From the sequence record PX583170.1: a stretch of DNA of 56,260 nt. One strand, 5' to 3'. The notes below the pieces were generated by a model. It saw only the letters and a program-made list of their open reading frames with translations, was not told the DNA's origin and did no database searches. Below are positions 1-56,260 of this stretch, in pieces (positions within the stretch are counted from its first letter, which is position 1; every line of letters begins with the position of its first letter). The translations under genes were made by a program, and so were the position numbers. The stretch comes from a phage.

Positions 1-135
1 CGGACTTAAAATACGGTCCCTACCCCAACTTTTTCCTACAGCCTATCGGCTTAATGATAACACCAAGTTAGGCGCTTCGCTTATGAGTCAAGGTCAAAGG
101 CAATCAGAGCACGCTGTTGTAACGAGCTAGTCTTA

Positions 136-157
136 CCATTAGTTGGTTGTGATTATG
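136..157 (+). promoter_or_regulatory. Promoter-motif copy P1 (candidate phage-RNAP promoter) upstream of the RNAP gene
   Basis: ccATTAGTTGGttgtgattatg; shares the CATTAGTTG core with 13 other sites. Confidence 0.4.
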
Positions 158-214
158 AATAGGCTACGCAAGTCTAATCCGTTTCAGTTAAATCATAATC
201 AATTGGAGACTATC

Positions 215-2329
215 ATGACTAATGAAGAATATCGTGCACTGGCTGCTGATGGCGCTCGCTTAAAAGAAGAAGGCCACGGTTGGAAAGACGTGCTTGATAC
301 GATGGACCGTTGCAACCAAATGGTTGATGAAATCACTACTGCTACACAATCCGAAACTAAAACCGAAACTAACTTGGAGACTCGCAAAATGACAACTATC
401 TCAACTCAAACTATCAAATCCGTTGTCCCTGCTATCACGGCTCTGGTATACCGTGCTAAAGAGAAACAGAACTACATGCAGCCTCAGACCTGTGCTATTG
501 CTGCTCTTGCAATCTTCAAGATGATGACCTCATTCACTCGTGATGATGTTGTCCCAGCCATTGCAATGGTTGAGCTGGCTTCTGCTTCTATTGCTGATGC
601 CAACCGTTATAACAACGATTTGAAAGCAATGCACTATGTTGACCCAGCTATCAACCTCATTGGTTTGGCTAAGCACTTTGGCTTCATTACCATGAACGAA
701 GACAAGTCATTCCAACAAACTGATACATGGGTTGAACTGGTTACAACCAAAGACACAGCAGTGCCATTCACTGAGCGTGTTACATCTGAATCTCGTCGCA
801 AGCCTTTCGTTAAAGGTGGCAAAGTTAAGCCATCCAAAACTTTGAAAGCTGCAATCGAATTCCTGCAAGATACTGAGTACCATGTGGAGACTGAGATGGT
901 TCGCATCATCCAGTCCATGCTTGAGCAACGTACCTACGGTGGTTTGCAGATGCCAGAAGCAATCCAGACTGAACTTCATGTTTGGAACAATGCTGTAGCA
1001 ATGATGAATCAGGATAAGCTGTATTCTGACTACTTTGCTGATAACCGTGGTCGCCTGTATCATGTAGCATGTGCTGGCCCTAACCCACAATCCTCTGACT
1101 TTGCTCGTTGCTTGTATTCTCACAATGTTGAGAACATCGTTAAGAAGTTTAACGAAGATGGTTCTACTACCATCGCATACAACATGTTCATGGCAGAGCT
1201 GGAAGATATTTCTGGTGGTGAATGGTGCAGTGCTAAGCGTTTAACTTATGTTGCTCAGAATCCAGCTGGTTCACTTGCTCGCATGATGAACATGCCTAAA
1301 GCTGAACGTCCTTCCAAGCCATTCACTTATGTTCGTCTGGCTCTGGATTGGTTCAAGTTTGAGACTACAGGTGAGTGCGATTCTCGTGTAGGCTTTGGCT
1401 TAGATGCTAAATGTTCTGGTACTCAATATCTGGCATTCATTGCTGGTAACATGGAAATGGCTCGTGCAACAGGTCTGGTTGATTCTGAGACTAAAGCATC
1501 TGACCCATACCAGTTATCTCTTCGTGAACTGTTGAAGTTACTCGACCGTTCTTCAATGAAGCCATCTCCTGAAATCATGGATGAGTTCTTGAATCCGAAA
1601 GCTGGTCGTAAGTTTATCAAAACTCCATACATGGCTATCCAATATGGTGGTGGTAAAGCAGCATTGACTGGTTCTTCTGACTTCATTAGCTACATGACAG
1701 AAGCTCTCCAGATTCCTATGGAGAAAGCTGAGGCATTTGCTGAACTGTGTGTAGAAGCAATCCATAACGCATTGGGTGCTAAGATTAACATGTTCATCGA
1801 GAAAGCTGCTGATGCTGCATACAATCGTTGTGTTGAACTTGGCAAAGAGTACATCACATATCGCCACACTGATGGTCAGGTTGTAATGAAGCCTTGCTTC
1901 CCATCTCGTGAAATCTGTGAGGCATTCAGCATTCGTGTTGATAGTCAAACTCGTGTTATCTTTGGTCAGATTCAGGAGAACAAGCCTTGGACCATTCGTG
2001 AGTCCAATCCAACTAAAGAAGAGTTCAAGCGTACCTTCGTTGTTAACTACATCCAAGGTATTGACGCATTGGTTGCTCGTACTGTTGCAGTTAAAGCTAA
2101 AGAAGCTGGTCTTCGTGGCTTTACTTCAATTCACGATTGTTTCCGTTGCTGCTTAGCTGATGCTCCACGTATGATGGAAGTTATTCGTGCAGCATATGTT
2201 GAAATCTTCGTAACCAACAATCAATTCGAGAATCTGTCTAAGCAACTCGGTGGCATTCAGATGTATCATGAGAACATCGTAACCGAAGAGCTTCTGATGA
2301 GCGAACATGCTTACTACTTCTGTCAATGA
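215..2329 (+). CDS. T7-like single-subunit DNA-dependent RNA polymerase (ORF opens at 143; ATG at 215 has SD ggaga)
   Basis: Motif A-like FGLDAKCSGTQYLAF (T7 DGSCSGIQHF), motif B-like KFIKTPYMAIQYGGG, motif C-like TSIHDCF (T7 HDSF). Shorter than T7 RNAP. Confidence 0.85.
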   Translation: MTNEEYRALAADGARLKEEGHGWKDVLDTMDRCNQMVDEITTATQSETKTETNLETRKMTTISTQTIKSVVPAITALVYRAKEKQNYMQPQTCAIAALAIFKMMTSFTRDDVVPAIAMVELASASIADANRYNNDLKAMHYVDPAINLIGLAKHFGFITMNEDKSFQQTDTWVELVTTKDTAVPFTERVTSESRRKPFVKGGKVKPSKTLKAAIEFLQDTEYHVETEMVRIIQSMLEQRTYGGLQMPEAIQTELHVWNNAVAMMNQDKLYSDYFADNRGRLYHVACAGPNPQSSDFARCLYSHNVENIVKKFNEDGSTTIAYNMFMAELEDISGGEWCSAKRLTYVAQNPAGSLARMMNMPKAERPSKPFTYVRLALDWFKFETTGECDSRVGFGLDAKCSGTQYLAFIAGNMEMARATGLVDSETKASDPYQLSLRELLKLLDRSSMKPSPEIMDEFLNPKAGRKFIKTPYMAIQYGGGKAALTGSSDFISYMTEALQIPMEKAEAFAELCVEAIHNALGAKINMFIEKAADAAYNRCVELGKEYITYRHTDGQVVMKPCFPSREICEAFSIRVDSQTRVIFGQIQENKPWTIRESNPTKEEFKRTFVVNYIQGIDALVARTVAVKAKEAGLRGFTSIHDCFRCCLADAPRMMEVIRAAYVEIFVTNNQFENLSKQLGGIQMYHENIVTEELLMSEHAYYFCQ

Positions 2330-2370
2330 TATTAATTGGTCAAGGATGACCACAAACTTGGAGACTTATA

Positions 2371-2571
2371 ATGAACATTCAACAAATCAATCAAATCGAA
2401 AACTGTTTCAATCCTCATCATACCTGTGACATGAGCAACTTATCTCGTCCTACAGTGGAGGAGACTAAAGACTTCTTAGAATTGTTAGCAGAATATAAAC
2501 AAGAATCGCATGTACTATTGCATGCATATTTGCACAATTCTGGATACTTTGATACAGAAATACCGTTCTGA
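2371..2571 (+). CDS. Hypothetical small protein (66 aa)
   Basis: ATG with SD ggaga 8 nt upstream; followed by a terminator. Confidence 0.5.
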   Translation: MNIQQINQIENCFNPHHTCDMSNLSRPTVEETKDFLELLAEYKQESHVLLHAYLHNSGYFDTEIPF

Positions 2572-2576
2572 TATTT

Positions 2577-2603
2577 GGGAGCTTCGGCTCCCTTTTCTTG
2601 TTT
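2577..2603 (+). terminator. Rho-independent terminator
   Basis: GGGAGC-ttcg-GCTCCC perfect 6-bp stem with UUCG loop, then ttttcttgttt. Confidence 0.75.
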
Positions 2604-2623
2604 CAACTAAGTCGCATAACTCA

Positions 2624-2645
2624 GCATTAGTTGTATGTGAATCTA
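2624..2645 (+). promoter_or_regulatory. Promoter-motif copy P2
   Basis: gCATTAGTTGtATGTGAATcta, directly after the terminator and 22 nt before the next gene. Confidence 0.5.
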
Positions 2646-2666
2646 ATAAACCATTTGGAGCATATC

Positions 2667-2834
2667 ATGTTTACAGTGACCTTAGTAACCTATTATGGCA
2701 AGCAAGTTTGTGAGAAGTTTGAGACTTTGAAAGAAGCCCGTGAGTTTGCAGCTCGTGAAGAGAATATTTATGTAGACTGTGAAATCACAGATGGTGATAA
2801 GCAGTATGAAGTTGTAGCTCCTACACTCAACTGA
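2667..2834 (+). CDS. Hypothetical small protein (55 aa; ORF opens at 2631)
   Basis: ATG at 2667 preceded by tttggag SD; the earlier TTG start lies inside the promoter motif. Confidence 0.45.
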   Translation: MFTVTLVTYYGKQVCEKFETLKEAREFAAREENIYVDCEITDGDKQYEVVAPTLN

Positions 2835-2848
2835 TTCCCAATATTCGG

Positions 2849-2858
2849 ACAATATTGT
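2849..2858. promoter_or_regulatory. Perfect 10-bp palindrome ACAATATTGT (operator-like)
   Basis: Self-complementary; flanked by aatattcgg and gcatgtaatattgt. Confidence 0.35.
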
Positions 2859-2884
2859 TGCATGTAATATTGTCCCGATATTCG

Positions 2885-2906
2885 ACATTAGTTGGATATG
2901 AAGTAA
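2885..2906 (+). promoter_or_regulatory. Promoter-motif copy P3
   Basis: aCATTAGTTGGATATGAAgtaa; followed by hairpin CGGAG-aaata-CTCCG at 2913..2927; no gene for ~1 kb downstream. Confidence 0.45.
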
Positions 2907-3277
2907 AGAATACGGAGAAATACTCCGCATGACATATTGAATCATTCTAGAAACATTCAGCATGTCAGCTTTGAGTTACAGTGTTGTAATGATGTGGCAA
3001 TCATTGAACTCCCTGGGTAGGCCACCTACAGTTCCAGCAACCATGACACAGAGTAGGAATATCTATCCGAAACTTGTACTTCACCTATAGCATGTCTATT
3101 AGCTACAGTATTGTTCCTTCTCCTATTATCAAGGCCCACCCACAAGCCGGGAGATAACTTTGACAAGACTGGAACTTTTGGACATGCTTCTTTCTTTCTA
3201 CAAGAATTTGAAAGAAGAGAAGAAGTCGGACTAAGCCTCTCGTTTTCACGCAGAAGCCGCCCCGATTTTGAGCAACA

Positions 3278-11308: not shown

Positions 11309-11377
11309 TTCCAGGCGGGTTTCTTCGAAGTGCCAAGCGGGTTTTGTGCTCGCATTGGCCTTCGGCTTTAGTCTGAA

Positions 11378-11399
11378 ACATTAGTGGGATTTGATTCGG
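11378..11399 (+). promoter_or_regulatory. Promoter-motif variant P8
   Basis: aCATTAGTgGGATttgattcgg. Confidence 0.35.
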
Positions 11400-11517
11400 A
11401 CCACTTAGGGAAGAAAGGCATTATACACTTATCGCCAAATGGGTGTCAAGCACTTTCTTCATTTATTTAATTTATTCTTATTATTCTTTTTGTTTGGAAT
11501 ATTGGAATAATTCTGAA

Positions 11518-11539
11518 ACATTAGTTGGAATTGAATTAG
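11518..11539 (+). promoter_or_regulatory. Promoter-motif copy P9
   Basis: aCATTAGTTGGAATTGAATtag, with prefix ttctgaaa shared with P8 and P12. Confidence 0.45.
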
Positions 11540-13584: not shown

Positions 13585-13613
13585 GTCGTTTGACGAATCA
13601 GAGCAGTTCTGAA

Positions 13614-13635
13614 ACATTAGTTGGATGTGGAAAGA
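13614..13635 (+). promoter_or_regulatory. Promoter-motif copy P12
   Basis: aCATTAGTTGGATGTGgAAaga. Confidence 0.5.
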
Positions 13636-25473: not shown

Positions 25474-25995
25474 ATGTCTTGTATTACCCAAGTTGTTGCA
25501 GTTAAACGAGTGCATCCTAATGCGAAATTACCTGTGTACGCTACTGCTGGTGCTGCTGCTGCTGATGTTTGCACTATCTCCGATAGCACTGTTGTTATCA
25601 ATCCCGGCTGCTCTGCTGTTTTCGATACTGGCCTCCAATTCGAGATTCCAGTTGGATACGAACTCAAAGTATATAGCCGCTCTGGTCATGGCTTTAAGTC
25701 TGGTATTCGCCTGGCAAACTGCACAGGAATTCTGGACTCCGATTATCGTGGCAATCTTATGGTTAAGTTGCACAACGACTCGGACACAGCCTTTGTGGTT
25801 CAACCAGGTGAACGTATTTGTCAAGTGCAAGTTAGTAAAGCTACTCAACACCATTTCGTTGAAGTTGACCGCTTGAATGCAACTGGTCGTGGCGAAGGTG
25901 GCTTTGGCTCAACTGGTCGTGTGGAACTTGGTCAGCATGAAAGACCACATATTCCAGAAGGCTTGACAGTCCACAATCACAGCATTGCCAAGTAA
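25474..25995 (+). CDS. dut: dUTPase
   Basis: Motifs SRSGHGFKSG and GILDSDYRGNLMV. Confidence 0.85.
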   Translation: MSCITQVVAVKRVHPNAKLPVYATAGAAAADVCTISDSTVVINPGCSAVFDTGLQFEIPVGYELKVYSRSGHGFKSGIRLANCTGILDSDYRGNLMVKLHNDSDTAFVVQPGERICQVQVSKATQHHFVEVDRLNATGRGEGGFGSTGRVELGQHERPHIPEGLTVHNHSIAK

Positions 25996-26034
25996 TATTC
26001 GACATTCTCAGTAACCAATTGGAACCTATCTGAA

Positions 26035-26419: not shown

Positions 26420-26605
26420 ATGCGCACAATACAATGTCCTAACTGCCACTATGAAATTGCAGAAGATGATTTCATAACGCAGCAATGTCCTATCTGTGAT
26501 TCATATATGCCACTAAACCGCCTGTATTTAAAGGCCGATTCTGGTTTAGGCAGCATCATTCGCATCAATCCCGTGCAAACTCAGCCATTAGTGGATTGTG
26601 ATTAA
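26420..26605 (+). CDS. Small zinc-ribbon protein (61 aa)
   Basis: CPNC-x17-CPIC. Confidence 0.45.
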   Translation: MRTIQCPNCHYEIAEDDFITQQCPICDSYMPLNRLYLKADSGLGSIIRINPVQTQPLVDCD

Positions 26606-28643
26606 AAACAAAGAGAACGAATCAATGTCAAAGACTGATGACCTCGGACCGGAGTTTAATGATACAGTAGCCTCGTATCTTGCCAAGCACTACGGTGACG
26701 TATTAAAAGTCTCAAGAGAAAGATTCTGTATTCTATCTTTGCCATTGCTCCGTCGATATATTTCAGAAAATACTGCAATAGTTGACAGCTATGAAGAACA
26801 AATTCAAGCAGAGTTAGAAGGCCAGGGTCTTGAAAACGATGCTGTATTGCGTTCCGTTTTCAGAGCACAACTTGAGCGTCTTCGCTCTGGCGACAAGAAA
26901 GACTCGACTGCCTATGCAGATGAGTTGAAGAAAGGTATTCAAGCAGGTGTTACTGACCGTGTTGCAGGTTCCACATTAGAGGAGCCAAACTCGGAGCATG
27001 ATAACACCGAGGAACTTGTAGACAAGATTCTGCATGACCCACACAATGTGGACCCAACTGTAATCCCTGCCAAGGTTGCAGAGCGTGTTCGCAAAATCTT
27101 GATGAAAAGTTTCGAAGCCTTTGGTAAATGGCAGTTCCATATTCAGATGGGATTTCCATTTCAAGCACAAGACTTTCACGATGTAATATTCAGTGTTGGT
27201 CAAAAGGTTGTTGATGGTGAGATTGACCGCTTAATAGTGACCATTCCTCCACGACACTCTAAGACTCAGCTCATGAGTATTGCATTGCCCTTGTATTCAT
27301 TTTGCCACAATGAATCAAGCCATAACATTATCACCTCGTATGCAGAAGACGTTGTTCTTGAATCGAGTGGCTACATCCGTGCTGTAATGATGGACCCACT
27401 ATTCCAACGCATATTCCCTAAGGTGAGAATCGACCCTAACAAACGTTCTCTTGAACGCTGGGGTACAACCAAAGCTGGAGTTATGCACGCAGTACCTACT
27501 GGTGGTAAGCTAACTGGTAAAGGTGCTGGACTTCTTGTTGCAAAATACTCCGGCTGTTTCGTGGTGGATGACGTTATCAAACCAAAAGATGCCTACTCTG
27601 ACACAGTTCGAGCAGAAATCAACGACAGATTTGATAACACCTTTATGTCCCGTCTTGCCAACGATGGTTGCATAACTGATTCGTACGGAAACCAAATCAA
27701 GTGTGCCCGTACACCAATGGTTATTATCATGCAGCGAGTCCATGACCAGGATTTAGTTGGTTACATACTCCGTGGCGGCTCTTCCGACAAATACCATTAT
27801 CTCAATATCCCAGCGATTATTGAGAAAGGAGTTGGAAGTGCTGAATGGTATGATAAGTTAATCAAGAAGCAGAACTACACTCATGCTATTCCCATTCTGT
27901 ATAATTTGAACAGGAAGGAAGAGAAGTCTGCATTATGGCCTTCACGTAAGAGTTTAGAATCTCTGGAGGCAATGAAAGAGTCTAACCCATACACGTACAA
28001 TTCACAGTATGCTGGCGACCCATCTGCACAAGGCCACGGCCTTATCAAAGAAGATTGGTGGCAAGAGTATGAACCAGACGTTTTCGACAGAAGTCGCATA
28101 GTCAGAAGTTTTATTACAGCGGATACGGCATCAACTGCCAAATCTTATTCTGATTATTCGGTCCTTAAGCATTGGGGCGTGACTAAAGAGCGTGATGTTT
28201 ATTGCTTAGATATTATGCTCGGTAAGTTTGAAACTCCAGAACTCAAGACTGCTATCATCGACTTCTGGAACAAATGCAACAAGTTGGATTTGAAGTGTGT
28301 AGGTTGTATTCCTCGTGCACTGTACATGGAAGACAAGTCTGCTGGACAATTCTTGAACCAACAATTTATTAGAGATGGGAGTGTCCGAGTTTTACCGCTG
28401 CCTCGTGACGGCATTAATGGTAATGACAAGGTAACTCGATTCCTTAACGCAATCCCATATTTCTCGCAAAAGAGAATATTCTTCCCCGCTGGTCATGAAC
28501 ACATTGACCATGTTAGACGTGAAATACTTGGATTCACTTCTTTGGGTAGTGGTACTGGACACGACGATTGCGTCGATAACGTTTCAGATATGGTTGCAAT
28601 CGAATTCTCTGGCCCAAGTGCCAACTACTCCGCATGGATGTAA
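26598..28643 (+). CDS. Terminase large subunit
   Basis: Deviant Walker A PPRHSKT (compare T4 gp17 SRQLGKT), Walker B CFVVDDV, C-terminal Asp motifs ITADTAS and HDDCVDNVSDM. Confidence 0.65.
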   Translation: MIKNKENESMSKTDDLGPEFNDTVASYLAKHYGDVLKVSRERFCILSLPLLRRYISENTAIVDSYEEQIQAELEGQGLENDAVLRSVFRAQLERLRSGDKKDSTAYADELKKGIQAGVTDRVAGSTLEEPNSEHDNTEELVDKILHDPHNVDPTVIPAKVAERVRKILMKSFEAFGKWQFHIQMGFPFQAQDFHDVIFSVGQKVVDGEIDRLIVTIPPRHSKTQLMSIALPLYSFCHNESSHNIITSYAEDVVLESSGYIRAVMMDPLFQRIFPKVRIDPNKRSLERWGTTKAGVMHAVPTGGKLTGKGAGLLVAKYSGCFVVDDVIKPKDAYSDTVRAEINDRFDNTFMSRLANDGCITDSYGNQIKCARTPMVIIMQRVHDQDLVGYILRGGSSDKYHYLNIPAIIEKGVGSAEWYDKLIKKQNYTHAIPILYNLNRKEEKSALWPSRKSLESLEAMKESNPYTYNSQYAGDPSAQGHGLIKEDWWQEYEPDVFDRSRIVRSFITADTASTAKSYSDYSVLKHWGVTKERDVYCLDIMLGKFETPELKTAIIDFWNKCNKLDLKCVGCIPRALYMEDKSAGQFLNQQFIRDGSVRVLPLPRDGINGNDKVTRFLNAIPYFSQKRIFFPAGHEHIDHVRREILGFTSLGSGTGHDDCVDNVSDMVAIEFSGPSANYSAWM

Positions 28644-28857: not shown

Positions 28858-30466
28858 ATGACTTCCAAGAAGAAAAACAATCTCTCTGTTAAAGTTGCAG
28901 ATGGGTTAGAAAACCTTGTAACGGGGTTGGGCGGTCAGGCAGATAAGTCCACTTTTAACCAGTGGACTTTCTCAAACAAGAACGCGAACTATCGCGAACT
29001 TATGAACCGCTTCCGTGAGGACTGGGTTGCACAGAAAGTGTGTACCGTCATTCCTCAAGATATGACGCGTAAGTGGCGGCATATTGATACCGAAGAAGGA
29101 CGCAAAGCGGATAAGAAACTTCGTATTCGTAAGCTGTTCCGTGAGGCGTATCAATGGGCCAGGTTGTATGGTACTTCGTTTGTTCTGCTCGACCGCGAAC
29201 TTATGAACCGCTTCCGTGAGGACTGGGTTGCACAGAAAGTGTGTACCGTCATTCCTCAAGATATGACGCGTAAGTGGCGGCATATTGATACCGAAGAAGG
29301 ACGCAAAGCGGATAAGAAACTTCGTATTCGTAAGCTGTTCCGTGACTCAAGATATGACGCGTAAGTGGCGGCATATTGATACCGAAGAAGGACGCAAAGC
29401 GGATAAGAAACTTCGTATTCGTAAGCTGTTCCGTGAGGCGTATCAATGGGCCAGGTTGTATGGTACTTCGTTTGTTCTGCTCGACCTAAAAGGTACGGGC
29501 AAACTTGATACACCATTGCGACTGGATAACTTGAAGACTGGATGTATTAAATCCATGAGAGTTATTGACCGCTCACGCTTATTTGCCGCAGGGACTATGG
29601 TTCTGGACCCTTTGAGTCCTCACTATGGTTTGCCAGAGTATTACACTTTGGCTGGGTATCCCGGCTATATCCACTACACTCGTTTCCTTCGGTTCGAGGG
29701 TACTGAACTGCCGCTGTTCGAATTCCAACGCAACATGTGGTATTCTGATTCGGTACTTATTCCACTGCTGAAAACGATTGACCAATTCTACACAACTGCC
29801 GCTGCTGCTGCCAGCCTTGCCCAAGAAGCCACTATTGATGTGGTAACTGTTGAAGGCTTACAATCTCTGCTTACATCACCGGAAGGTGAAGCTGCTGTGA
29901 TGAAGCGCTTCAAACTCATGAAGCTGGCAAAGAGTATTTATAACGTCTTAATTCTCGACAATACGGAGAAGTATGACACCAAGTCAATTGCACTATCTGG
30001 TGTGAAAGATTTGATTTGGGAATACTTGAAGATAGTTGCTGCCGCAGTTGGTATTCCGGCTACACGTTTCCTTTCTGCATCTCCAGACGGTATGAATGCT
30101 ACGGGCGAATCTGACCTCGTAAACTATATCGACTTGTTGACTGGCTTGCAGACTTCTGTGTTCGACCCTCGTTTAGATGTGGTAGACAAGATTGTCCAGG
30201 CGCACTTTGGCATTGAAGAATATAACTACGAATGGTTAGATATCTTCCCTGAATCCAATGTTGAGAAAGCGAAGCGAGCTAAAGATTTGGCATTTGCTGT
30301 TGACCTGCTGGTTAACAACGGTACTATTACTACCGAAGTTGCAAACGAAGTCATGTTCCATTCGGGCGTGTTCGGAACTTGTGACCTTGGCAAACCAAAT
30401 CCTAATCCTCCTAACATCCAAAAGGGTAACGCAAGTGAAGCAAAACCAAAACCTGGTTCAGCTTAA
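28858..30466 (+). pseudogene. Putative portal gene split into two ORFs (28858..29364 and 29285..30466) by a scrambled tandem duplication
   Basis: Removing 29194..29485 (292 bp) gives one continuous 438-codon ORF; portal call is by position after TerL only. Confidence 0.5.
28993..29485. repeat. Scrambled tandem duplication: full 201-bp unit, then two partial copies
   Basis: Unit 28993..29193; copy 29194..29345 matches unit bases 1-152; copy 29346..29485 matches unit bases 62-201. Confidence 0.9.
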
Positions 30467-30479
30467 CGACGAAGATACC

Positions 30480-31499
30480 GTGAATGAAGTAGTTTTGTTG
30501 AACGACAAGGCTACTTTAACGACCCGTCGTTTACGTGACTCTGGCGAAATGATTGCAGAATGCACCATCGCCCGTACCGGCATCATGCTGTACAAGGCGA
30601 AAGAACTTGGTGAAATTGCAAAACATCTAGACCCAGAATCTATTTGCCGTGTTCGTACCAAGCCGGAAGTATTATTTGACGAAGCAACCATCGAAGGCTG
30701 TCGTTCAATTCCGGTTACTATCGGCCATCCGAAAAATGATGTTAACATCAAGAACAACAAAGAACTCCAGAAAGGGTTCATCGAAGGGCGTCCAGTTGCA
30801 GACGGTTCTTTCTTGGCTGCATCAATCGTTTTGAATGACGAGCAAGCTATTCGATTAGTTGATTCTGGTGTTGACCAAATCTCCTTGGGCCATAATGCTG
30901 AACTGGCTGTATCAGAAGATGATGAAGCTGACTTCGATAAAGTTCGCATTATCCCCAACCATGCTGCAATTGTTGTTCGTGGTCGTGCTCAGACTACTCG
31001 CATTGGTGACTCTGGTGAAGAGATTGCCATTGTTGATAAGGCAACCTTTGACGTTGTTGAAGCAGAGCGTGATGCAGCGCTTGACAAGATTAGTGTCCTT
31101 GAGCAGAAACTTGCTGATGCAGAAACTGCACGACTATCCGATGAAGCCATTCAGGCTGAGGTAGACAAACGTGTAGTTGCTCGTACAGCATTGCTTGTTG
31201 ATGTGGCCCGTCTTGGCGACGAGTTCTCCAACCTAGATTTCTCCGGCAAGACCGATGCAGAAATTAAGTTGGCTGTAGTTAATAAATTGCATGACAAGGA
31301 TTTCAGCGATAAGAGCGAAGACTATATCTCCGCCCGTTTCGATGCAGCTCTTGAAGATTGCGATTCCATTACTTTGGGAGATGCCCTGAATCAGTCTATG
31401 CAATTTTCTGCTAAGAAAGATTCAGAAGCTCGTAAACCTAAAGTTTCTATTTCCGAAGAAGCTAACAAACGTCGTTTAGAACGCTTCAACTCTTTATAA
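30480..31499 (+). CDS. Putative prohead scaffold and/or protease (GTG 30480; ATG 30549 alternative; ORF opens at 30258)
   Basis: Position between portal and capsid genes; coiled-coil-like DAALDKISVLEQKLADAETARL. Confidence 0.4.
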   Translation: MNEVVLLNDKATLTTRRLRDSGEMIAECTIARTGIMLYKAKELGEIAKHLDPESICRVRTKPEVLFDEATIEGCRSIPVTIGHPKNDVNIKNNKELQKGFIEGRPVADGSFLAASIVLNDEQAIRLVDSGVDQISLGHNAELAVSEDDEADFDKVRIIPNHAAIVVRGRAQTTRIGDSGEEIAIVDKATFDVVEAERDAALDKISVLEQKLADAETARLSDEAIQAEVDKRVVARTALLVDVARLGDEFSNLDFSGKTDAEIKLAVVNKLHDKDFSDKSEDYISARFDAALEDCDSITLGDALNQSMQFSAKKDSEARKPKVSISEEANKRRLERFNSL

Positions 31500-31508
31500 G
31501 GTAAGACA

Positions 31509-31982
31509 ATGCCAAAGCAAGATTGGTCTATTAATACTGGTGAAGCATATGCAGGTGAACAATATGGCCTGGCTACCACCAACTCTCAGCGCCTGACTTA
31601 CGTTGCCGAAGAAGAAATGGCAAACTTTGGTCTGGCTGTTGTTCAAGGCACGGCCTCTAATCAGGTTAAACCTGGTATTGAAGCTGATGGCACTGTTCTG
31701 GGCATTACTATGCGCCAGCTTAACATCGAATCTGCCACCCGCCCTGGTGACGGCACTGTTGCTATTAAAGTTGGCTGGCCTCTGGGCGTTATGCTGTCTG
31801 GCCCAATCATGGTCAAACTGGTAACTGCAATCACTGATAAAGACATTGGCGTATCTGCCACTGGTCAATTTGGTGGCGTTGGTGCTGGTTATACTAAAGC
31901 AACCAACCTGACTGCCCTGCGTTATCCGGCTTCCGCTGGTGATGTTGTCCCGGTCATGATTAACGTAGTCCCAAAGCCGTAA
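31509..31982 (+). CDS. Head-region structural protein (157 aa) carrying a slippery site at its 3' end
   Basis: SD aaggtaa; ends MINVVPKP*. Confidence 0.55.
   Translation: MPKQDWSINTGEAYAGEQYGLATTNSQRLTYVAEEEMANFGLAVVQGTASNQVKPGIEADGTVLGITMRQLNIESATRPGDGTVAIKVGWPLGVMLSGPIMVKLVTAITDKDIGVSATGQFGGVGAGYTKATNLTALRYPASAGDVVPVMINVVPKP
31970..31976 (+). other. Candidate -1 ribosomal frameshift heptamer C_CCA_AAG
   Basis: X_XXY_YYZ in the zero frame; the -1 frame is open from 31964 to 32557. Confidence 0.5.
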
Positions 31983-32557
31983 CGCCACCTCCAGCTCCTA
32001 CAGTATCTGCTGTTGCAGGGGCTGTAACTGCGGACGCATCTGCCTCTGATGCAACTGTAACTGTAGACAAACTGTTTAAGTTTGAGAACTCTGCGGCAAC
32101 AGATTATAACTTCGCTGTTACACCTCCCGTGACTGGTGTTTCTGTGGCGGCAAACGGCACTGTGACTGTACTCAGTGCAACGACTACAGCCACTTCTGCG
32201 ACAATCAAGGCAACAAATAAAACAGAGTCTGGCGTAACTGCATCCAAACAGATTACGATTAAGCCTAAGCCTCCTGCACCTACGGTGTCTGCTGTAGATG
32301 GAGTTGTAACGGCTGATGCGTCTTCTACTGATGCCACTGTAACTGTGGACAAACTGTTTAAGTTTGGTAACTCTACAGCAACAGACTACACCTACGCTAT
32401 TACGCCTCCTGTGACTGGCGTTTCTGTGGCTGCAAATGGTACTGTAACCGTCTTAAATGAGACAACTACCGATACCTCTGCCACGGCTAAGGCAACAAAC
32501 AAAACAACCTCCAGCGTGACTGCAACTAAAGAGATTGCTATTACGCCGAAGTCTTAA
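31976..32557 (+). CDS. Two tandem Ig-like (Big_2-like) domains in the -1 frame, reachable only by frameshifting
   Basis: No ATG/GTG/TTG between 31964 and 32128 in this frame; repeat unit PPAPTVSAV...VTGVSVAANGTVTVL...KATNKT occurs twice. Confidence 0.5.
   Translation, partial: AVTPPPAPTVSAVAGAVTADASASDATVTVDKLFKFENSAATDYNFAVTPPVTGVSVAANGTVTVLSATTTATSATIKATNKTESGVTASKQITIKPKPPAPTVSAVDGVVTADASSTDATVTVDKLFKFGNSTATDYTYAITPPVTGVSVAANGTVTVLNETTTDTSATAKATNKTTSSVTATKEIAITPKS
31988..32554. repeat. Diverged tandem duplication, 2 x 282 bp, encoding the two Ig-like domains
   Basis: Protein repeats start at 31988 and 32270; ~80% nt identity by eye. Confidence 0.7.
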
Positions 32558-52701: not shown

Positions 52702-53168
52702 AAGAGTAATATTAGGAATGCGTAAAGTTCAAAACCAAATGGTACATGGTCGGTCAACTGTACCTCCTTCGGAGAAGGTACCTGGATAGAAATTCGTTCA
52801 TGGTCGGTCAGCTGTATCTAGCCGAAATTTGTTCGAACAGTTGTCTGACTATGAAATAAATTTTTTTTTATAATTTTTTTTTTATTTTTAAATATTGCTA
52901 CAGAATTAATGAGACTAGAATTCGTAACAAAGCTACGAGACTCGAATTGTTTCAATATTAACGAGACTCAATCTGTGACAATATTATAATTTTTATTTTT
53001 GGGCCAGCGGGGAGGGGAAGCCCAACGTCCTATCGGACTTAAAATACGGTCCCTACCCCAACTTTTTCCTACAGCCTATCGGCTTAATGATAACACCAAG
53101 TTAGGCGCTTCGCTTATGAGTCAAGGTCAAAGGCAATCAGAGCACGCTGTTGTAACGAGCTAGTCTTA

Positions 53169-53190
53169 CCATTAGTTGGTTGTGATTATG
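53169..53190 (+). promoter_or_regulatory. Promoter-motif copy P1 (right repeat copy)
   Basis: Identical to 136..157. Confidence 0.4.
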
Positions 53191-53247
53191 AATAGGCTAC
53201 GCAAGTCTAATCCGTTTCAGTTAAATCATAATCAATTGGAGACTATC

Positions 53248-55362
53248 ATGACTAATGAAGAATATCGTGCACTGGCTGCTGATGGCGCTCGCTTAAAAGA
53301 AGAAGGCCACGGTTGGAAAGACGTGCTTGATACGATGGACCGTTGCAACCAAATGGTTGATGAAATCACTACTGCTACACAATCCGAAACTAAAACCGAA
53401 ACTAACTTGGAGACTCGCAAAATGACAACTATCTCAACTCAAACTATCAAATCCGTTGTCCCTGCTATCACGGCTCTGGTATACCGTGCTAAAGAGAAAC
53501 AGAACTACATGCAGCCTCAGACCTGTGCTATTGCTGCTCTTGCAATCTTCAAGATGATGACCTCATTCACTCGTGATGATGTTGTCCCAGCCATTGCAAT
53601 GGTTGAGCTGGCTTCTGCTTCTATTGCTGATGCCAACCGTTATAACAACGATTTGAAAGCAATGCACTATGTTGACCCAGCTATCAACCTCATTGGTTTG
53701 GCTAAGCACTTTGGCTTCATTACCATGAACGAAGACAAGTCATTCCAACAAACTGATACATGGGTTGAACTGGTTACAACCAAAGACACAGCAGTGCCAT
53801 TCACTGAGCGTGTTACATCTGAATCTCGTCGCAAGCCTTTCGTTAAAGGTGGCAAAGTTAAGCCATCCAAAACTTTGAAAGCTGCAATCGAATTCCTGCA
53901 AGATACTGAGTACCATGTGGAGACTGAGATGGTTCGCATCATCCAGTCCATGCTTGAGCAACGTACCTACGGTGGTTTGCAGATGCCAGAAGCAATCCAG
54001 ACTGAACTTCATGTTTGGAACAATGCTGTAGCAATGATGAATCAGGATAAGCTGTATTCTGACTACTTTGCTGATAACCGTGGTCGCCTGTATCATGTAG
54101 CATGTGCTGGCCCTAACCCACAATCCTCTGACTTTGCTCGTTGCTTGTATTCTCACAATGTTGAGAACATCGTTAAGAAGTTTAACGAAGATGGTTCTAC
54201 TACCATCGCATACAACATGTTCATGGCAGAGCTGGAAGATATTTCTGGTGGTGAATGGTGCAGTGCTAAGCGTTTAACTTATGTTGCTCAGAATCCAGCT
54301 GGTTCACTTGCTCGCATGATGAACATGCCTAAAGCTGAACGTCCTTCCAAGCCATTCACTTATGTTCGTCTGGCTCTGGATTGGTTCAAGTTTGAGACTA
54401 CAGGTGAGTGCGATTCTCGTGTAGGCTTTGGCTTAGATGCTAAATGTTCTGGTACTCAATATCTGGCATTCATTGCTGGTAACATGGAAATGGCTCGTGC
54501 AACAGGTCTGGTTGATTCTGAGACTAAAGCATCTGACCCATACCAGTTATCTCTTCGTGAACTGTTGAAGTTACTCGACCGTTCTTCAATGAAGCCATCT
54601 CCTGAAATCATGGATGAGTTCTTGAATCCGAAAGCTGGTCGTAAGTTTATCAAAACTCCATACATGGCTATCCAATATGGTGGTGGTAAAGCAGCATTGA
54701 CTGGTTCTTCTGACTTCATTAGCTACATGACAGAAGCTCTCCAGATTCCTATGGAGAAAGCTGAGGCATTTGCTGAACTGTGTGTAGAAGCAATCCATAA
54801 CGCATTGGGTGCTAAGATTAACATGTTCATCGAGAAAGCTGCTGATGCTGCATACAATCGTTGTGTTGAACTTGGCAAAGAGTACATCACATATCGCCAC
54901 ACTGATGGTCAGGTTGTAATGAAGCCTTGCTTCCCATCTCGTGAAATCTGTGAGGCATTCAGCATTCGTGTTGATAGTCAAACTCGTGTTATCTTTGGTC
55001 AGATTCAGGAGAACAAGCCTTGGACCATTCGTGAGTCCAATCCAACTAAAGAAGAGTTCAAGCGTACCTTCGTTGTTAACTACATCCAAGGTATTGACGC
55101 ATTGGTTGCTCGTACTGTTGCAGTTAAAGCTAAAGAAGCTGGTCTTCGTGGCTTTACTTCAATTCACGATTGTTTCCGTTGCTGCTTAGCTGATGCTCCA
55201 CGTATGATGGAAGTTATTCGTGCAGCATATGTTGAAATCTTCGTAACCAACAATCAATTCGAGAATCTGTCTAAGCAACTCGGTGGCATTCAGATGTATC
55301 ATGAGAACATCGTAACCGAAGAGCTTCTGATGAGCGAACATGCTTACTACTTCTGTCAATGA
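53248..55362 (+). CDS. T7-like single-subunit RNA polymerase, second copy
   Basis: Protein identical to 215..2329. Confidence 0.85.
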   Translation: MTNEEYRALAADGARLKEEGHGWKDVLDTMDRCNQMVDEITTATQSETKTETNLETRKMTTISTQTIKSVVPAITALVYRAKEKQNYMQPQTCAIAALAIFKMMTSFTRDDVVPAIAMVELASASIADANRYNNDLKAMHYVDPAINLIGLAKHFGFITMNEDKSFQQTDTWVELVTTKDTAVPFTERVTSESRRKPFVKGGKVKPSKTLKAAIEFLQDTEYHVETEMVRIIQSMLEQRTYGGLQMPEAIQTELHVWNNAVAMMNQDKLYSDYFADNRGRLYHVACAGPNPQSSDFARCLYSHNVENIVKKFNEDGSTTIAYNMFMAELEDISGGEWCSAKRLTYVAQNPAGSLARMMNMPKAERPSKPFTYVRLALDWFKFETTGECDSRVGFGLDAKCSGTQYLAFIAGNMEMARATGLVDSETKASDPYQLSLRELLKLLDRSSMKPSPEIMDEFLNPKAGRKFIKTPYMAIQYGGGKAALTGSSDFISYMTEALQIPMEKAEAFAELCVEAIHNALGAKINMFIEKAADAAYNRCVELGKEYITYRHTDGQVVMKPCFPSREICEAFSIRVDSQTRVIFGQIQENKPWTIRESNPTKEEFKRTFVVNYIQGIDALVARTVAVKAKEAGLRGFTSIHDCFRCCLADAPRMMEVIRAAYVEIFVTNNQFENLSKQLGGIQMYHENIVTEELLMSEHAYYFCQ

Positions 55363-55403
55363 TATTAATTGGTCAAGGATGACCACAAACTTGGAGACTT
55401 ATA

Positions 55404-55604
55404 ATGAACATTCAACAAATCAATCAAATCGAAAACTGTTTCAATCCTCATCATACCTGTGACATGAGCAACTTATCTCGTCCTACAGTGGAGGAGACTA
55501 AAGACTTCTTAGAATTGTTAGCAGAATATAAACAAGAATCGCATGTACTATTGCATGCATATTTGCACAATTCTGGATACTTTGATACAGAAATACCGTT
55601 CTGA
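55404..55604 (+). CDS. Hypothetical small protein, second copy
   Basis: Identical to 2371..2571. Confidence 0.5.
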   Translation: MNIQQINQIENCFNPHHTCDMSNLSRPTVEETKDFLELLAEYKQESHVLLHAYLHNSGYFDTEIPF

Positions 55605-55609
55605 TATTT

Positions 55610-55636
55610 GGGAGCTTCGGCTCCCTTTTCTTGTTT
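55610..55636 (+). terminator. Rho-independent terminator, second copy
   Basis: Identical to 2577..2603. Confidence 0.75.
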
Positions 55637-55656
55637 CAACTAAGTCGCATAACTCA

Positions 55657-55678
55657 GCATTAGTTGTATGTGAATCTA
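55657..55678 (+). promoter_or_regulatory. Promoter-motif copy P2 (right repeat copy)
   Basis: Identical to 2624..2645. Confidence 0.5.
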
Positions 55679-55699
55679 ATAAACCATTTGGAGCATATC

Positions 55700-55867
55700 A
55701 TGTTTACAGTGACCTTAGTAACCTATTATGGCAAGCAAGTTTGTGAGAAGTTTGAGACTTTGAAAGAAGCCCGTGAGTTTGCAGCTCGTGAAGAGAATAT
55801 TTATGTAGACTGTGAAATCACAGATGGTGATAAGCAGTATGAAGTTGTAGCTCCTACACTCAACTGA
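55700..55867 (+). CDS. Hypothetical small protein, second copy
   Basis: Identical to 2667..2834. Confidence 0.45.
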   Translation: MFTVTLVTYYGKQVCEKFETLKEAREFAAREENIYVDCEITDGDKQYEVVAPTLN

Positions 55868-55917
55868 TTCCCAATATTCGGACAATATTGTTGCATGTAA
55901 TATTGTCCCGATATTCG

Positions 55918-55939
55918 ACATTAGTTGGATATGAAGTAA
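55918..55939 (+). promoter_or_regulatory. Promoter-motif copy P3 (right repeat copy)
   Basis: Identical to 2885..2906. Confidence 0.45.
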
Positions 55940-56260
55940 AGAATACGGAGAAATACTCCGCATGACATATTGAATCATTCTAGAAACATTCAGCATGTCA
56001 GCTTTGAGTTACAGTGTTGTAATGATGTGGCAATCATTGAACTCCCTGGGTAGGCCACCTACAGTTCCAGCAACCATGACACAGAGTAGGAATATCTATC
56101 CGAAACTTGTACTTCACCTATAGCATGTCTATTAGCTACAGTATTGTTCCTTCTCCTATTATCAAGGCCCACCCACAAGCCGGGAGATAACTTTGACAAG
56201 ACTGGAACTTTTGGACATGCTTCTTTCTTTCTACAAGAATTTGAAAGAAGAGAAGAAGTC

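Follow-up and report, generated by a model that had tools for sequence, protein, structure and literature searches.

The portal is essential and is encoded by a single-copy gene. Spontaneous tandem duplications, which arise by illegitimate recombination or replication slippage, belong to the classical genetics of phages T4 and lambda, and their junctions usually show a few bases of homology. Extra copies of a sequence can also be false duplications created during assembly, usually with a single overlap. Overlapping ORFs in different frames are, furthermore, found where recoding is programmed, as in the tail chaperone pair G/GT and in frameshift-appended Ig-like domains. In phage genomes with direct terminal repeats (DTR), assembly errors and "manual stitching" have been described (PMC10438801).

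Here we analyzed a stretch of phage DNA of 56,260 nt (sequence record PX583170.1), referred to in full as the window. The window is a Carltongylesvirus genome (Chaseviridae, phiEcoM-GJ1-like), 96-98% identical to Escherichia phages flopper, JL1, TH53 and SA91KD. The original prediction was that a scrambled tandem duplication of 292 nt breaks a putative portal gene, and it offered three explanations, an artefact, a defective variant and a recent duplication, which proved to be the right set. The locus lies between the genes for the terminase large subunit and the head maturation protease, in the same order as in flopper, SA91KD and JL1. Its features are the following:

26598..28643, + strand, terminase large subunit, intact, upstream of the portal
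28858..29364, + strand, 5' ORF of 168 aa, matching PHROG portal family phrog_146 (E=1.8e-35)
28993..29193, + strand, original 201-nt unit, portal codons 46-112
29194..29345, + strand, extra copy of unit nt 1-152, 100% identical (151 nt if an ambiguous C is given to the left flank)
29285..30466, + strand, 3' ORF of 393 aa from a TTG, matching PHROG portal family phrog_146 (E=1.3e-91)
29346..29485, + strand, extra copy of unit nt 62-201, 100% identical (141-nt repeat with the shared C)
30435..31499, + strand, head maturation protease (DUF2213/Pa193_gp24), intact, downstream of the portal

On recheck, all of the coordinates first proposed for the unit, its two copies, the two ORFs and the restored 438-codon ORF were exact. 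Sequence comparison within the window showed that the original unit is followed directly by its nt 1-152 and then by its nt 62-201, with 0 mismatches in either copy. The match of the second copy extends by one base to 141 nt (29054..29194 = 29346..29486), because the base at 29194 and at 29486 is a C in both contexts. Apart from these two and one 20-mer, the non-redundant part of the genome (1..53033) has no exact direct repeats of at least 20 nt; chance is therefore no issue, and the duplication is far beyond it. The extra copies are thus real features of the sequence as written, but "scrambled" overstates their disorder, since the order reduces to two nested head-to-tail duplications. The layout is most simply described as a 201-nt tandem duplication, which spans 67 codons, is in frame and begins at codon 46, plus a 91-nt duplication of unit nt 62-152 nested inside the second copy, which moves the reading frame by +1. 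The same layout would equally result from a triplication and the later loss of 110 nt. The copies are direct, head-to-tail and taken from adjacent sequence, as would be the case after slippage or template switching.

The 292 nt split the gene into the two ORFs as predicted, and their deletion (29194..29485) leaves 1317 nt, that is, 438 codons and a stop. An uninterrupted ORF of about 438 aa is absent from the window as written and is present only when these positions are removed. The 5' ORF encodes portal residues 1-112, then residues 46-95 again, and then six out-of-frame residues, DSRYDA, before the stop codon TAA at 29362-29364; its match to the portal family consists of two stretches. The 3' ORF encodes portal residues 67-438 in frame from 29348, and its first in-frame ATG is that of Met69 (29354-29356), 5 nt upstream of the stop codon of the 5' ORF. 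As written, the record is without a functional portal gene, and annotation would give two fragments or a pseudogene.

That the gene encodes a portal, which had been put forward as putative, was confirmed by a Pfam profile and by solved portal structures. The restored ORF matched PF06381 (Phage_portal_3/DUF1073) over residues 50-382 with 253 bits (cut-off, 33.8; E=4.4e-75), the cyanophage Pam3 portal (8hds) over residues 12-403 (E=6.1e-37) and the portal gp19 of Pseudomonas phage E217 (8fvh; E=8e-14). As a member of PF06381, the restored gene is unremarkable. For the fold we used an AlphaFold model of a 97%-identical homologue (P0001; mean pLDDT 71, pTM 0.65), whose numbering is that of the window +1. 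In the N-terminal region of this model the 10-residue blocks have a mean pLDDT of 81-94, and the region of the unit forms helices 46-55, 57-71, 80-88 and 91-105 and strands 75-77 and 107-114. Because residues 46-112 fall in these four helices and two strands, all confidently modelled, the break and the duplicated residues are placed by the model inside the folded N-terminal core and not in a linker.

The extra DNA was then sought in relatives. All 43 full-length phage records covering the region have 1809 nt where the query has 2101 nt, exactly 292 fewer, and by BLAST the single unit of SA91KD and of JL1 matches all three copies in the window. A protein identical to the protease of the window occurs on 24 public contigs, and the 10 of them that were listed all carry an intact 438-aa portal. 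When these 10 independent Logan/ENA contigs were aligned with the window minus the 292 nt, there were zero gaps over 4.3-6.8 kb at 96-98% identity, and neither junction was found in these metagenomic/SRA contigs. Scans for both junctions in IMG/VR and for junction 1 in JGI metagenome contigs gave 0 matches each, and the broken fragments were absent from a collection of about 15 billion proteins. In all relatives examined the portal gene is uninterrupted and encodes 438 or 439 aa. Furthermore, the restored 438-aa protein and the portals of two phage isolates, vB_EcoM_JL1 and vB_EcoP_Bp7, do not differ at any residue. The possibility that the gene is a family variant with a natural 67-aa duplication in frame was rejected, as no protein of such a length was present among the best 120 of 550 portal homologues (E<=1e-20), which were 323-475 aa long.

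Relatives differ from the window by 2-4% in the duplicated region, whereas the copies are 100% identical to the unit over 152 and 141 nt, and the event is therefore younger than any of this divergence. The extra copies also share the window's own SNPs relative to the relatives. These results bear out the proposal of a recent event, and one that is unique to this sequence, being absent from the 43 records and the 10 contigs. Two names met in the portal searches look like mislabels: the record "Staphylococcus phage Pel53" (host S. hyicus), which has a Carltongylesvirus portal in the same 90% cluster, and the NCBI name "anti-CBASS protein Acb1 family protein" for a portal homologue of an Enterobacter prophage (P0053).

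Junction 1 lies between 29193 and 29194, where …TTCTGCTCGAC is joined to CGCGAACTTATG…, and junction 2 between 29345 and 29346, where …CTGTTCCGTGA is joined to CTCAAGATATG…. The microhomology was 1 nt (a C) at junction 1 and 0 nt at junction 2, and in a null set of 100000 random backward jumps within the portal gene 56% had 0 nt and 28% had 1 nt. Both joins are effectively blunt, with microhomology at chance level. The ccgt/cgcgaact microhomologies on which the original prediction had drawn do not hold, since these motifs lie near the breakpoints but are not common to the joined partners. Because the junction microhomology is at chance level, the argument for template switching fails, and nothing supports a switch guided by homology. 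Hairpin-promoted switching was also ruled out, by the ordinary folding of the breakpoints and by the lack of inverted repeats: the minimum free energies of 60-nt DNA windows at the four breakpoints were -3.0 to -8.7 kcal/mol (background in the gene, -4.9 +/- 2.5), and a search for inverted repeats of at least 20 nt found none.

With the ambiguous C counted in the left flank, the piece in the middle measures 151 nt and the overlap of the flanks 141 nt. The standard Illumina read length is 151 nt, and 141 is the largest default k of MEGAHIT. This match to two technical constants is suggestive, but it was noticed post hoc among several possible lengths. The lengths 201, 151 and 141 can alternatively be read, as a lead, as a 201-bp library fragment with its own 151-nt read 1 placed after its end.

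The quality of the rest of the record was judged with 66 proteins of SA91KD, 63 of which have a counterpart in the window by tblastn and 3 of which do not. All 63 counterparts map in a single frame except the portal, the only split gene, and there was no scatter of homopolymer frameshifts among them. Partial-length matches were given by a dUTPase homologue and by one small divergent protein (48% identical). As judged from these comparisons, the sequence is of high quality outside this one spot, and a generally error-prone assembly from long reads only was rejected, every other gene with a counterpart being full length and in one frame. The dUTPase homologue (25474..25995) has 173 aa here and 197-198 aa in SA91KD and JL1, and the nucleotide alignment breaks at 25975-26017; its shortness may be due to natural variation at the C-terminus or to a second problem of local extent.

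The ends of the window are redundant, with 1..3227 identical to 53034..56260 over an exact 3227 nt, a repeat that contains the whole of a T7-like RNA polymerase gene (143..2329). The vB_EcoM_JL1 record has an exact terminal redundancy of 2995 nt, whose two ends fall, in the alignment, on bases 1 and 3227 of the window. The 3227-nt redundancy probably reflects direct terminal repeats that are present in the virion DNA itself, and repeats of this type are documented for this phage group (PMC8762354). The window is a complete linear genome written with both of its terminal repeats. A repeat of 3227 nt cannot be written out twice by a short-read assembler without further processing. The presence of both copies in the record therefore means that the record was finished or post-processed.

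Elsewhere in the window, a direct-repeat family (D4; 11352..11389, 11492..11529 and 13588..13625), whose copies share …TTCTGAAACATTAGTTGGA, corresponds by coordinate offset to the annotated phiEcoM-GJ1-type phage promoters in SA91KD.

The capsid cement gene lies 2.6 kb downstream of the portal duplication (31509..31982, + strand; Pfam Phage_cement, E=1e-16) and ends in …GTC CCA AAG CCG TAA. The heptamer C CCA AAG at 31967..31973 is in the correct phase for a -1 frameshift, and from it the -1 frame is open for 193 codons, which would give a fused region of 31509..32557 (+ strand) with the predicted frameshift junction …VVPK/AVTPPPAP… (window 31967-31990). The 193-codon extension consists of two tandem 94-aa repeats that match a PHROG "Ig domain containing protein" (E=2.6e-10), and the first of these Ig-like repeats lacks its own start codon. 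All 13 other genomes examined keep both the heptamer and an open extension. The extension has 193 codons in 6 of these, 99 in 5 and 64 in 1, and in flopper it is open for at least 75 codons, at which point the fetched locus ends, before a stop. The frameshift is unannotated in SA91KD, JL1 and flopper; at this site annotators and gene callers give a mere fragment or nothing. Judging from sequence and its conservation, an unannotated programmed -1 frameshift probably fuses the cement protein to one or two Ig-like decoration domains. Both domains are encoded by an in-frame tandem repeat of 282 nt (31988..32269 and 32270..32551), the two copies being 77% identical, and the number of copies varies among relatives: in 5 of 10 contigs (L006-L015) the start of the major capsid gene lies 282 nt earlier, and one of the 10 has a partial Ig-like domain. 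Unlike the portal insertion, the Ig-like repeat is a natural in-frame domain duplication.

Taken together, the 292 nt are probably a non-biological insertion introduced in sequencing, assembly or finishing. In favour of the artefact are the perfect match of the copies, the uniqueness of the event, the identity of the restored protein to that of viable phages, the intact state of the remaining genome, the blunt joins and the post-processing of the record. With respect to the three explanations first offered, the weight shifts towards the artefact because no residue of the restored protein differs from the portal of viable phage isolates, no other gene that has a counterpart is damaged and the record is a finished one. 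The copies are identical and are present in this record only, and blunt junctions fit a concatenation better than slippage. On this account, 29194..29485 would be foreign to the working genome of the phage, whose true portal would be the single 438-codon ORF, and overlapping pieces (contig ends, a read or a local re-assembly) would have been concatenated end to end rather than merged. Other routes to the same result would be a gap-fill error or a few chimeric library molecules threaded into the consensus. Chimeras from multiple displacement amplification (MDA) fit poorly, as these are mostly inverted and carry microhomology. An origin outside the phage, in vitro or in silico, is the best explanation that we can offer, and a reasonably likely one.

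Some observations stand against an artefact. Two nested events within 200 bp resemble the secondary rearrangement of a genuine, unstable tandem duplication, and we could not name a specific program or mechanism from which the exact layout derives. Furthermore, de novo assemblers rarely invent junctions, and therefore, unless pieces were joined manually or by a script, junctions 1 and 2 must be present in some molecules or chimeric reads.

These observations lend some weight to the second explanation, that of a real but non-viable duplication mutant in the lysate, in which the 201-nt duplication would have arisen by illegitimate, homology-independent recombination; we regard this as possible but rather unlikely. 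It would be followed, just as tentatively, by the second duplication of 91 nt, or by triplication and then the deletion of 110 nt. Such portal-null genomes would have been packaged through wild-type helpers in co-infection, and the assembler would have taken the longer path, a sequence of events that we likewise find doubtful. The copies are arranged head-to-tail and derive from this very genome, whose SNPs they share, nested events are typical of real duplications that are unstable, and an automatic assembler needs junction reads in order to write junctions. A DTR-type genome, which is not packaged by the headful, would also tolerate an additional 292 bp. However, genomes without a portal would gain nothing obvious in replication and should remain a rarity instead of becoming the consensus, the junctions show no microhomology, and no trace of the duplication is present in any related genome.

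The third explanation is that the arrangement is real, fixed and tolerated, the portal being made from the 168-aa N-terminal fragment together with a C-terminal fragment re-initiated at Met69 (ATG 29354), or else, with as little probability, by a +1 recoding event within the 80-nt frame overlap that restores the frame. The two ORFs do jointly encode every portal residue, and the arrangement of ATG and stop codon, ATGACGCGTAA, could allow termination-reinitiation, but inspection by eye found neither a Shine-Dalgarno-like sequence ahead of ATG 29354 nor a recognisable +1 slippery site in the overlap (29285..29364), the break and residues 46-112 lie within confidently modelled helices and strand, every relative has one uninterrupted gene for 438 or 439 aa, and the perfect identity of the copies leaves no period of selection on the new arrangement, so that we consider this explanation highly improbable. 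If the structure were uniform in a viable clonal phage, it would be a naturally split portal caught immediately after its origin, an outcome that we hardly expect.

The insertion is probably not a real feature, and neither a false duplication nor a spontaneous tandem duplication is new. The main value of the finding lies in curation: once 29194..29485 are taken out, the gene encodes the same protein as in known viable phages. Were the duplication genuine and confined to a minority of molecules, it would be of modest interest as a minor case of nested duplication without homology in a phage lysate, and a viable phage with a split portal, the unlikely case, would be surprising.

Compared with known systems, the locus has most in common with false duplications in assemblies, which show the same identical copies, blunt joins and overlapping pieces placed end to end, and which likewise appear in one record only and damage a gene that is intact in all relatives; it differs from them in having two junctions. 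The problems described for DTR phage genomes (PMC10438801) concern indels and stitching in general and not the pattern observed here. The tandem duplications of T4 and lambda are similarly direct, head-to-tail and recent, measure a few hundred bp and readily undergo a second rearrangement. However, the junctions here have 1 and 0 nt of homology, and this duplication inactivates an essential gene and so could not be the propagating genotype. Among PF06381 portals, such as those of Pam3 and E217, the restored ORF is alike in match and in gene position, and the gene of the window differs only as written, in being split into ORFs of 168 and 393 aa. Finally, programmed recoding shares with the split portal the presence of two overlapping ORFs in different frames, but the portal has no slippery site and no conservation of the split, and the shift needed would be +1; the C CCA AAG site of the cement gene in the same genome is, in contrast, an apparently genuine and conserved example of recoding.
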